Source: Escherichia coli
GTDB lineage: Bacteria; Pseudomonadota; Gammaproteobacteria; Enterobacterales; Enterobacteriaceae
DNA: 64,000 bases
NCBI RefSeq assembly: GCF_036507355.1
Contig: NZ_AP027877.1
Strand: one strand, 5' to 3'
In this document: positions 21,757 to 49,565 of the stretch, one piece after another
Layout of the letters: the number at the start of each line of letters is the position of its first letter
Numbering within the stretch: the stretch's first letter is position 1
Program-made: the position numbers and the translations under genes
The notes under the pieces: model-generated
What the model was told of the DNA's origin: nothing
What the model saw: the letters and a program-made list of their open reading frames with translations, nothing else
The model's database searches: none

Positions 21757-22814
21757 TGGAGCGCACTATGAGTCAGAAAAATTTTGTTGAACTGCGCAAC
21801 GTCACTAAACGATTCGGCAGTAATACGGTTATCGACAATATCAATCTCACCATTCCACAAGGGCAAATGGTGACGCTGCTCGGTCCTTCCGGCTGTGGCA
21901 AAACCACCATTTTGCGTCTGGTTGCCGGGCTGGAAAAACCGAGCGAAGGGCAAATTTTTATTGATGGCGAAGATGTCACGCATCGTTCCATTCAACAGCG
22001 CGATATCTGCATGGTGTTTCAGTCATACGCTCTGTTCCCGCATATGTCGCTGGGTGAAAACGTTGGCTACGGGCTGAAGATGCTTGGCGTGTCGCGTAGC
22101 GAAGTGAAACAGCGGGTGAAGGAGGCGCTGGCAATGGTGGATCTGGAAGGCTTCGAGGACCGCTATGTCGATCAGATTTCCGGTGGTCAGCAACAGCGTG
22201 TGGCACTGGCCCGCGCGTTGATCCTCAAGCCAAAGGTGCTGCTGTTTGATGAGCCGTTAAGTAACCTCGATGCCAACCTGCGCCGCAGTATGCGCGATAA
22301 GATCCGCGAGCTGCAAAAGCAGTTTAATATCACGTCGCTCTACGTCACTCACGATCAAAGTGAAGCTTTCGCGGTGTCCGACACTGTGCTGGTGATGAAT
22401 AAAGGTCACATCATGCAGATTGGCTCACCGCAGGATCTCTATCGTCAGCCAGCCTCCCGATTTATGGCAAGTTTTATGGGCGACGCCAACCTGTTCCCGG
22501 CGAACTTTAGCGAAGAGTATGTCGATATCTACGGTTATCGCCTGCCGCGCGCGGCGCATTTCCCGGCGCAAGGTAGCGGCACCGTCGGCGTTCGCCCGGA
22601 AGCCATCACCTTAAGCAATCACGGCGAAGAGAGTCAGCGTTGTGTTATTCGCCATGTCGCCTACATGGGGCCGCAGTACGAAGTGACCGTAGAGTGGCAT
22701 GGACAGGAGATTTTATTACAAGTAAACGCCACCCGTTTACAGCCCGATATTGGTGAGCACTATTACCTCGAAATCCATCCTTACGGGATGTTTGTTTTAG
22801 CGGATGCGGCATAA
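21756..22814 (+). CDS. afuC: ABC transporter ATP-binding protein, AfuC/FbpC-like
   Basis: 352-aa ORF with Walker [10 protein letters not shown], signature [14 protein letters not shown] and Walker B LLFDEP; the true start may be MSQKNF at 21768. Confidence 0.9.
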
Positions 22815-22896
22815 AAATAGCACATAAACGGTCCCCATCTGTCTTGAGGGACCGTTCACCTGGTTAGGCTTCGGACAACAATTATTCTCCAGTGTT

Positions 22897-22949
22897 ATAT
22901 ACTATAGGGGGGTATGCATTGACATATAGCATACCCCCCTATAGTATAT
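22897..22949 (+). promoter_or_regulatory. frmRAB promoter/operator: perfect 21-bp inverted repeat with G6/C6 tracts
   Basis: atatactataggggggtatgc (22897-22917) and its exact reverse complement (22929-22949) flank an 11-bp spacer attgacatata containing TTGACA; TATAGT/TAGTAT -10-like hexamers in the right arm; 25 bp upstream of the frmR ATG. Confidence 0.7.
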
Positions 22950-22973
22950 TGCGTGCAGATGATGAGGTGCGAA

Positions 22974-23249
22974 ATGCCCAGTACTCCGGAAGAGAAGAAA
23001 AAGGTCCTTACTCGAGTTCGTCGTATTCGGGGGCAGATTGATGCTCTGGAACGGTCGCTGGAGGGTGATGCCGAATGCCGTGCCGTACTCCAACAGATCG
23101 CTGCCGTTCGGGGCGCGGCTAATGGGCTGATGGCAGAAGTGCTTGAAAGCCATATCCGGGAAACGTTTGACCGAAATGACTGCTACAGCCGCGAAGTCAG
23201 CCAATCCGTTGACGACACTATTGAACTGGTTCGTGCCTATCTTAAATAG
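22974..23249 (+). CDS. frmR: Formaldehyde-responsive repressor FrmR (CsoR/RcnR family)
   Basis: 91 aa from [48 protein letters not shown]... Confidence 0.9.
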
Positions 23250-23253
23250 CTGA

Positions 23254-24393
<1,140 letters not shown>

Positions 24394-24485: not shown

Positions 24486-25319
24486 ATGGAACTCATTGAA
24501 AAACATGCCAGCTTTGGCGGCTGGCAAAATGTGTATCGGCATTATTCCCAATCATTGAAATGTGAAATGAATGTCGGCGTCTATCTCCCGCCAAAGGCCG
24601 CAGGTGAAAAATTACCGGTGCTGTACTGGCTTTCGGGCCTGACCTGCAATGAGCAGAATTTCATTACTAAATCGGGGATGCAGCGTTACGCGGCTGAGCA
24701 CAACATTATTGTTGTTGCGCCGGACACCAGTCCGCGAGGCAGTCATGTCGCAAATGCCGACCGTTACGATCTCGGGCAAGGTGCCGGGTTTTACCTGAAC
24801 GCAACGCAAGCGCCGTGGAATGAACATTACAAAATGTATGACTATATCCGCAACGAGCTGCCGGATTTAGTGATGCATCATTTTCCGGCAACGGCCAAAA
24901 AGTCTATCTCTGGTCATTCTATGGGCGGGCTGGGCGCGCTGGTGCTGGCGTTACGTAACCCAGATGAATATGTCAGCGTCTCGGCGTTTTCGCCCATTGT
25001 CTCCCCATCGCAAGTGCCGTGGGGACAGCAAGCCTTTGCTGCATATCTTGGTGAAAATAAAGATGCCTGGTTGGATTACGACCCGGTGAGTCTTATTTCA
25101 CAAGGTCAACGCGTTGCGGAAATCATGGTTGATCAGGGGTTGAGTGATGATTTTTACGCAGAACAGCTGCGGACTCCAAATCTTGAAAAGATCTGCCAGG
25201 AGATGAATATCAAGACGTTAATCCGTTATCACGAGGGTTACGACCACAGCTATTATTTTGTCTCCAGTTTTATTGGCGAGCATATTGCCTACCACGCCAA
25301 TAAACTGAATATGCGTTGA
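24486..25319 (+). CDS. frmB: S-formylglutathione hydrolase (esterase D family)
   Basis: 277-aa ORF with serine-hydrolase motif GHSMGG. Confidence 0.95.
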   Translation: MELIEKHASFGGWQNVYRHYSQSLKCEMNVGVYLPPKAAGEKLPVLYWLSGLTCNEQNFITKSGMQRYAAEHNIIVVAPDTSPRGSHVANADRYDLGQGAGFYLNATQAPWNEHYKMYDYIRNELPDLVMHHFPATAKKSISGHSMGGLGALVLALRNPDEYVSVSAFSPIVSPSQVPWGQQAFAAYLGENKDAWLDYDPVSLISQGQRVAEIMVDQGLSDDFYAEQLRTPNLEKICQEMNIKTLIRYHEGYDHSYYFVSSFIGEHIAYHANKLNMR

Positions 25320-27365: not shown

Positions 27366-27545
<180 letters not shown>

Positions 27546-37885: not shown

Positions 37886-37898
37886 AGGCACCCCAGGC

Positions 37899-37934
37899 TT
37901 TACACTTTATGCGTCCGACTCGTATGTTGTGTGA
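37899..37934 (+). promoter_or_regulatory. lac promoter P1 (-35 TTTACA, -10 TATGTT, 18-bp spacer)
   Basis: tttacactttatgcgtccgactcgTATGTTgtgtga; transcript start at the A of aattgtgagcgg (37935). Confidence 0.9.
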
Positions 37935-41047
<3,113 letters not shown>

Positions 41048-49299: not shown

Positions 49300-49565
49300 T
49301 GGGCAGGCATGATAAGACGCGTCAGCGTCGCATCAGGCATCTGAGCATGGTGTCGGATGCGGCGCGAGCGCCTTATCCGACCTACGGTTCAGGCCTGTAG
49401 GCATGATAAGACGCGTCAGCGTCGCATCTGGTATCAGCGCAGGGTGTCGGATGCGACGCGAGCGCCTTATCCGACCTACGGTTCAGGCCTGTAGGCATGA
49501 TAAGACGCGCCAGCGTCGCATCAGGCATCTGCGCACAACTGTCGGATGCGCCACGCGACGCATCC
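49300..49565. repeat. Tandem BIME array (about three REP-pair units, roughly 94-bp period)
   Basis: catgataagacgcg(t/c)cagcgtcgcatc...gtcggatgcg...gcgccttatccgacctacggttcaggcctgtagg repeated head-to-tail between codB and prpE. Confidence 0.85.

Follow-up and report, generated by a model that had tools for sequence, protein, structure and literature searches.

The stretch of Escherichia coli DNA analyzed here (64,000 nucleotides, hereafter the window) carries on its + strand the three genes of the frmRAB operon. The first, frmR (22974..23249), encodes a 91-amino-acid protein that keeps Pro2, Cys35, and His60 and matches the NCBIfam model NF008464 with 188 bits against a cut-off of 133. It is followed by frmA (23284..24393), for S-(hydroxymethyl)glutathione dehydrogenase, and frmB (24486..25319), for S-formylglutathione hydrolase, both assigned by NCBIfam equivalog models whose cut-offs they exceed (742 and 396 bits, respectively). 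FrmR of the window and FrmR of K-12, the protein crystallized under PDB ID 5LBM, are identical at 90 of 91 positions (99%), the difference being I38V. Of 5426 complete E. coli genomes, 5415 carry the locus, as a single copy.

In the window, as in O157:H7, the gene upstream is fbpC, encoding the ferric ABC-transporter ATPase FbpC, whereas K-12 and many other strains have yaiO at this place. Homology between the two contexts stops at about position 22882, some 15 bp before the dyad described below, so that alternative upstream neighborhoods directly abut the operator; the dyad itself is unchanged by the exchange of neighbor. Just past the fbpC stop codon lies a GGTCCC...GGGACC hairpin (22828-22854) with a weak T-tract, which is absent from the yaiO-context genomes and is probably the terminator of fbpC.

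Upstream of frmR, the repeat search located a dyad of 53 bp (22897..22949), a feature to which no strand applies, in the order ATATACTATAGGGGGGTATGC (22897-22917), ATTGACATATA, and GCATACCCCCCTATAGTATAT (22929-22949). Its two arms of 21 nt are 100% complementary and are separated by an 11-nt gap. A perfect 21-bp inverted repeat with G6/C6 tracts and an 11-bp spacer had been claimed in an earlier note on this DNA, and every detail of that description holds, including the distance to frmR: counted from the last base of the dyad to the ATG at 22974, it is 25 nt, as the note had said. Among inverted repeats whose arms lie at most 60 nt apart, the dyad is the longest in the window, the second-longest being found in the lac operator region. 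When the window was shuffled 12 times, the longest arm among such close repeats measured 9 to 12 nt; analytically, about 9e-7 perfect arms of at least 21 nt are expected. Folded as single-stranded DNA, the region forms a hairpin of -21.5 kcal/mol per strand (z = -7.4).

Each arm of the dyad in turn contains a short pseudo-palindrome, ATAC-N9-GTAT, the motif that, together with a G/C tract, was taken for our search from Denby et al. 2016 (PMC5146963) and from PMC11127321. The distal FrmR site, site 1, matches this motif at 22899..22915 as ATAC-TATAGGGGG-GTAT, with its G tract on the + strand; the proximal one, site 2, does so at 22931..22947 as ATAC-CCCCCTATA-GTAT. In each site, an off-centre tract of five or six G or C residues adjoins TATA. 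The site centers, at 22907 and 22939, are 32 bp apart, and the two sites are inverted relative to each other. Three base pairs separate site 1 from the -35 hexamer TTGACA that follows it, and site 2 spans the distal part of the promoter spacer and the whole of the -10 hexamer. Throughout the 64-kb window, these two are the only matches to ATAC-N9-GTAT, and a search allowing up to three mismatches returned no further FrmR site.

The dyad thus contains two FrmR sites, between and within which lie the -35 and the -10 of the frmRAB promoter (Pfrm), and it shows the features of a type I operator of the CsoR/RcnR (DUF156) family: both arms present ATAC-N9-GTAT with a G6 or C6 run, the sites flank the -35 and cover the -10 of a core promoter, the first gene of the operon encodes the cognate repressor FrmR, and other taxa keep such sites upstream of their orthologous repressor genes. 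The element is therefore two complete 17-bp type I operators in inverted orientation and not one oversized operator, which explains its length of 53 bp. The earlier note had called this an unusually long perfect dyad: its length is indeed exceptional in the window, but the view of it as a single operator gives way to one of two 17-bp sites.

A promoter scan of 22700-23400 found a single sigma-70-like promoter, TTGACA-17-TAGTAT, matching the consensus at 10 of 12 positions. Its -35 hexamer TTGACA (22919..22924, + strand) lies in the 11-nt spacer between the arms, and its -10 hexamer TAGTAT (22942..22947, + strand) lies 17 nt further on, within the right arm and site 2, which places both hexamers where the earlier note had put them. 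An alternative -10 hexamer, TATAGT (22940-22945, + strand), would leave a spacer of 15 nt; this is the promoter given by Shimada et al. 2014 (PMC3946193), TTGACA-15-TATAGT, who reported a SELEX peak of the RpoD holoenzyme in the yaiO-frmR spacer. For K-12, Table S1 of Kim et al. 2012 (PMC3415461) lists an frmR transcription start site (TSS) with a 19-nt 5' untranslated region (UTR), from 8 reads obtained under non-inducing growth conditions, with the upstream sequence ...CCCCCCTATAGTATATTGCATG. Transferred from that strain to the window through an alignment of the two alleles, this start is the G at 22955 (+ strand), 6 nt downstream of the dyad. Relative to 22955, TAGTAT occupies positions -13 to -8 and TTGACA positions -36 to -31, and the dyad is centered at -32. 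A Shine-Dalgarno-like GAGG (22965..22968, + strand) precedes the frmR ATG by 5 nt.

The same study reports a second, weaker K-12 frmR start (6 reads, 65-nt UTR; PMC3415461), which maps to 22909, inside the G tract of the left arm; transcripts from this start would carry most of the hairpin. No TSS is listed for the frmR locus in the Cappable-seq supplements. The earlier note had proposed that an frm transcript starting outside the dyad would refute its operator reading. The start at 22955 does lie outside, by 6 nt, yet the proposal was ill-posed: since the -10 hexamer sits in the right arm, the start necessarily falls just past the dyad.

Much of what this anatomy suggests is already known from experiments. 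Denby et al. 2016 (Sci Rep 6:38879; PMC5146963) recognized a pair of type I FrmR sites in the "large inverted repeat" of the E. coli Pfrm. Using BLItz on the K-12 promoter fragment, they measured a Kd of ~220 nM for FrmR and Pfrm, against ~3600 nM for a control promoter DNA. In the same study, formaldehyde abolished FrmR binding and dissociated the preformed FrmR-DNA complex, and in vitro transcription of frmRAB was repressed by FrmR and relieved by formaldehyde (PMC5146963). In Salmonella, Osman 2015/2016 (PMC4528141, PMC5016687) defined the frmRA operator as a C6 tract between the halves of an AT-rich inverted repeat; FrmR binds it at ~100 nM, each 33-bp duplex taking up two tetramers, as followed by anisotropy; mutation of one AT-rich flank abolished binding (PMC4528141). 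A 2024 biosensor paper (PMC11127321) transferred the two ATAC-N9-GTAT sites to promoter J23100, so that they surrounded its -35 and -10, and obtained FrmR-dependent repression, although its transplants gave mixed results, P93M being unresponsive and a truncated PfrmR that retained both sites having lost repression. The latter hints at a contribution of flanking DNA, but natural alleles cease to be homologous about 15 bp upstream of the dyad, which counts against any requirement for a specific flanking sequence. In the PDB, FrmR is present as apo and cross-linked protein only, and no FrmR-DNA structure was found there; nor did the accessible literature yield a nucleotide-resolution FrmR footprint on the E. 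coli dyad.

The relation of the window allele to these characterized operators is close. Compared with the K-12 Pfrm, it lies at the same locus, upstream of frmR-frmA-frmB, with identical 17-mers, -35, -10, and distance to frmR, and the two alleles are 97.9% identical over 94 bp. They differ at 2 of these 94 positions, neither of them within the 17-bp sites: K-12 has A at C22930, which reduces its arms to 20/21 matches against 21/21 in the window, and a second substitution at 22953. Upstream of about 22882, the DNA of the two strains is unrelated. The operator of Salmonella Typhimurium (frmRAPro), ATACCCCCCTATAGTAT, is identical to site 2 at 17 of 17 positions, and it shares the C6 tract, the AT-rich flanks, and the overlap with the -10 region just upstream of frmR. 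In Salmonella, however, only ...gATAGTATACCCCCCTATAGTATAT... is found, just before the ATG, and the upstream inverted copy is absent, so that no long dyad exists. The Salmonella FrmR is also a more distant homolog (89 bits, where the K-12 protein scores 186), and frmB is missing from the Salmonella operon, according to Osman (PMC4528141).

In view of the publications by Denby, Osman, the biosensor authors, and Shimada, the element and its function have already been described, and its discovery value is accordingly small: the element, the repressor, the chemistry of the effector, and the promoter are all published, and Pfrm is in use as a part of formaldehyde biosensors. Our analysis adds the exact coordinates and the placement of the published TSS on the dyad. 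It also shows that conservation attaches to the two 17-bp sites and not to the perfect 21-nt arms, that the proximal site recurs across Proteobacteria while the distal inverted copy is limited to some lineages of Enterobacterales and Aeromonas, and that a singleton natural allele has a flipped palindrome center.

Taken as a whole, the dyad is very probably the operator-promoter of frmRAB, at which FrmR tetramers on two sites occlude the promoter and from which FrmR dissociates once formaldehyde bridges Pro2 and Cys35. The earlier note's proposal of an autoregulatory FrmR operator enclosing the frmRAB promoter agrees with the published experiments on the K-12 allele. The exact anatomy, the identity of the sites to validated ones, and their conservation across species are observed here, whereas published work on K-12 or Salmonella has demonstrated that FrmR binds the promoter fragment and leaves it in the presence of formaldehyde, that it represses both in vitro and in vivo, that the AT-rich flank is needed, and where transcription starts. 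Without formaldehyde, tetrameric FrmR would sit on the sites and exclude the sigma-70 RNA polymerase, and while bound it would hold frmRAB, including frmR itself, at a low, autoregulated level. Formaldehyde would then link Pro2 to Cys35 between subunits through methylene bridges, remodeling the DNA-binding face; FrmR would leave the DNA, and transcription would begin about 6 nt downstream of the dyad. We infer that each site takes one tetramer and that repression occurs by steric occlusion, the stoichiometry being an assumption because the single Salmonella site binds two tetramers.

A different arrangement, in which a single FrmR tetramer or a stack of tetramers bridges sites 1 and 2 and loops or wraps the spacer bearing the -35, was raised as a speculation by Denby et al. 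2016 (PMC5146963), because the site centers are ~31 bp apart, as compared with 19 bp in the rcnR-rcnA operator. That operator, as summarized in PMC5146963 from Iwig and Chivers 2009, consists of two type I sites of the form TACT-G6-N-AGTA, each thought to take one tetramer. Within what is described there, RcnR belongs to the same repressor family as FrmR, and its operator resembles the dyad in having two sites per promoter, a TAC-N9-GTA frame, and a G6 tract; it differs in the spacing of its centers (19 bp versus 32 bp), in its flanks and the position of the tract, in responding to Ni/Co instead of formaldehyde, and in forming no long perfect palindrome. RcnR is reported to wrap DNA in the same source (PMC5146963), a property that would suit bridging, as would the spacing of 32-34 bp kept between the centers in two-site genera and the loss of repression from the truncated promoter (PMC11127321). 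Against bridging, many species, including Salmonella, regulate frm with the proximal site alone, the two sites of Erwinia endophytica are direct and not inverted, and a loop of 32 bp would be sterically very tight. We therefore consider bridging unlikely, though it is the most plausible of the alternatives weighed here, and retain the model of two separately occupied sites.

The comparison across species supports the reading as FrmR operators. Scanning one genome per species for the FrmR protein gave 80 frmR loci, whose upstream 160 bp were examined; in approximately 65 of them, ATAC-N9-GTAT with a C/G tract was found within that distance, its center mostly ~35-37 nt before the frmR ATG. A single proximal site is present in Brucella/Ochrobactrum, Pseudorhodoferax, Tatumella, Pasteurellaceae, and others, whereas Escherichia, Edwardsiella, an Enterobacter, Providencia, Aeromonas, Serratia, and Morganella have the proximal site together with an upstream inverted copy. 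In these two-site genera, the -35 lies between the sites and the centers are 32-34 bp apart. Salmonella, whose locus was added to this set from a separate retrieval, has the proximal site alone. The proximal site is thus kept upstream of frmR across Proteobacteria, and the distal site is confined to some lineages of Enterobacterales and Aeromonas. In Erwinia endophytica, two ATAC-N9-GTAT sites lie ~30-80 nt upstream of frmR in direct orientation, which indicates that the inverted symmetry of the pair is not obligatory.

Within Escherichia, the 17-bp sites are invariant, while the spacer, the inner two arm positions, and the flanks and downstream region vary. The arms of O157:H7, like those of K-12, match at 20 of 21 positions (T for G22929), those of E. 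albertii at 18 of 21, and those of other genera at 11 to 19 of 21. Of 5416 records, 2263 carry the exact 94-bp allele of the window; the K-12 allele was present in 978. Three further E. coli records, at 90-95% identity, lie outside this comparison. Since the inner arm pairs (22916-22917 and 22929-22930) are polymorphic, the perfect 21/21 dyad is one allele, and since only the 17-bp cores are conserved, selection acts on two 17-bp protein-binding sites. From this sequence comparison, the perfect 53-bp dyad is an allele state of two inverted operators and no separate feature. Lineage-specific bases occur on both arms, TATAGGGGGGTAT in Escherichia versus TATAGTGGAGTAT in the cassette of Edwardsiella and Morganella; these shared bases fit both a model in which the two sites track the same protein and one of concerted evolution within the palindrome.

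The position of the main TSS bears on any function at the RNA level, such as a terminator of fbpC, an attenuator, a structured leader, or a small RNA. Transcripts reading through from fbpC, or those from the minor start at 22909, would include all or part of the hairpin. However, the main start at 22955 is downstream of the entire dyad, fbpC has a hairpin of its own at ~22828-22854, and the upstream gene of K-12 is a different one (yaiO) with the same dyad, so that we give an RNA-level role practically no weight. Specifically, an intrinsic terminator was rejected: the terminator scan was empty at the dyad, whose flanks, TGCGTGCAG on the + strand and AACACTGGAG on the - strand, contain no T-runs. 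Rfam at the gathering threshold, applied to the whole window, found nothing relevant at the dyad, and Rfam 15 searched by E-value over 22750-23050 gave only miRNA-shaped matches of 20-27 bits, against gathering scores of 73-100.

The break of homology between the fbpC and yaiO contexts at ~22882, 15 bp from the dyad, might recall a dispersed or mobile palindrome (REP/BIME, MITE, or the end of an insertion sequence) or a scar left by the rearrangement of the upstream neighbor. Such an origin is as improbable as a role in RNA, in that the palindrome keeps a fixed distance from frmR in distant genera and is accompanied by neither target-site duplications nor a transposase. A dispersed repeat of the REP, BIME, or MITE type was itself rejected, as the sequence occurs at a median of one place per E. 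coli genome, and a search of the window that tolerated three mismatches revealed no second copy. Matches of the plasmid search were only mislabeled chromosomes and homologs of fbpC.

One natural allele departs from the arrangement described so far. In E. coli FJ_Ec_21 (NZ_CP143627.1, at about 3528805-3528835), the center of the dyad reads GGGGGGTAT-TCTATATGTCAATGC-ATACCCCCC, the exact reverse complement of the K-12 center. The inverted part comprises the spacer and inner arm positions, 11-15 bp including the -35, within the equivalent of window positions 22914-22932 (locus positions 431-449). Through this inversion, the promoter has moved to the opposite strand, where TTGACA-17-TAGTAT, again with 10 of 12 consensus matches, is directed away from frmR. 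A search of the 5426 genomes with both this natural allele and a synthetic perfect-arm inverted allele returned no inverted center other than that of FJ_Ec_21. The FJ_Ec_21 center is either a rare inversion mediated by a hairpin or by template switching, or an assembly artifact. A programmed invertible promoter switch of the fimS type, for which both orientations should be common, the invertible segment should measure hundreds of base pairs, and a recombinase should be adjacent, was rejected: the inversion occurs in 1 of 5426 genomes, it spans 11-15 bp, and no recombinase is found among the fbpC, yaiO, and frmR neighbors.

One may still ask whether intrastrand template switching or gene conversion keeps the two arms alike and occasionally flips the -35-bearing center, acting as a rare, reversible mutational off-switch. 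If so, Pfrm would become an equally good promoter firing away from frmRAB, silencing formaldehyde detoxification. We regard this as highly improbable: the idea is drawn from FJ_Ec_21, a single genome in which the center may be an artifact of assembly, and adaptation of both sites to the same protein would account for the similarity of the arms just as well.

The FJ_Ec_21 center is also what intrastrand hairpin formation or template switching would be expected to leave behind, and together with the perfect 21-nt arms and the stability of the hairpin per strand it could point to a palindrome that acts mainly through DNA structure and independently of FrmR, as a cruciform, through coupling to supercoiling, or as a roadblock to replication or transcription. 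An 11-nt spacer, however, disfavors cruciform extrusion. Moreover, it is the 17-bp sites that are conserved and not the perfect arms, as the arm matches in K-12, O157:H7, E. albertii, and the other genera indicate, and single-site species have no long palindrome at all; the inversion, for its part, is a singleton that could have arisen in assembly. A cruciform or roadblock, which the earlier note had suggested, found no support in our analysis and is not needed to account for the anatomy of the dyad, and we judge a primarily structural role even less probable than the off-switch. Two FrmR operators around one promoter remain the preferred description.

Elsewhere in the window, Rfam placed naRNA4 (nucleoid-associated noncoding RNA 4, CssrE; REP-derived) at 27393-27470 on the + strand and at 49306-49382 on the - strand, both above the gathering score. 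The lac promoter and its O1 operator lie at 37890-37975, with lacZ starting at ~37973 on the + strand, and the inverted repeat of this region, 19 nt at 89%, is located around O1. This region presumably differs from that of K-12 by a few single-nucleotide polymorphisms; one of them, GTGTGAAATTGT in place of what we take to be GTGTGGAATTGT in K-12, extends the symmetry around O1 and so yields this repeat.
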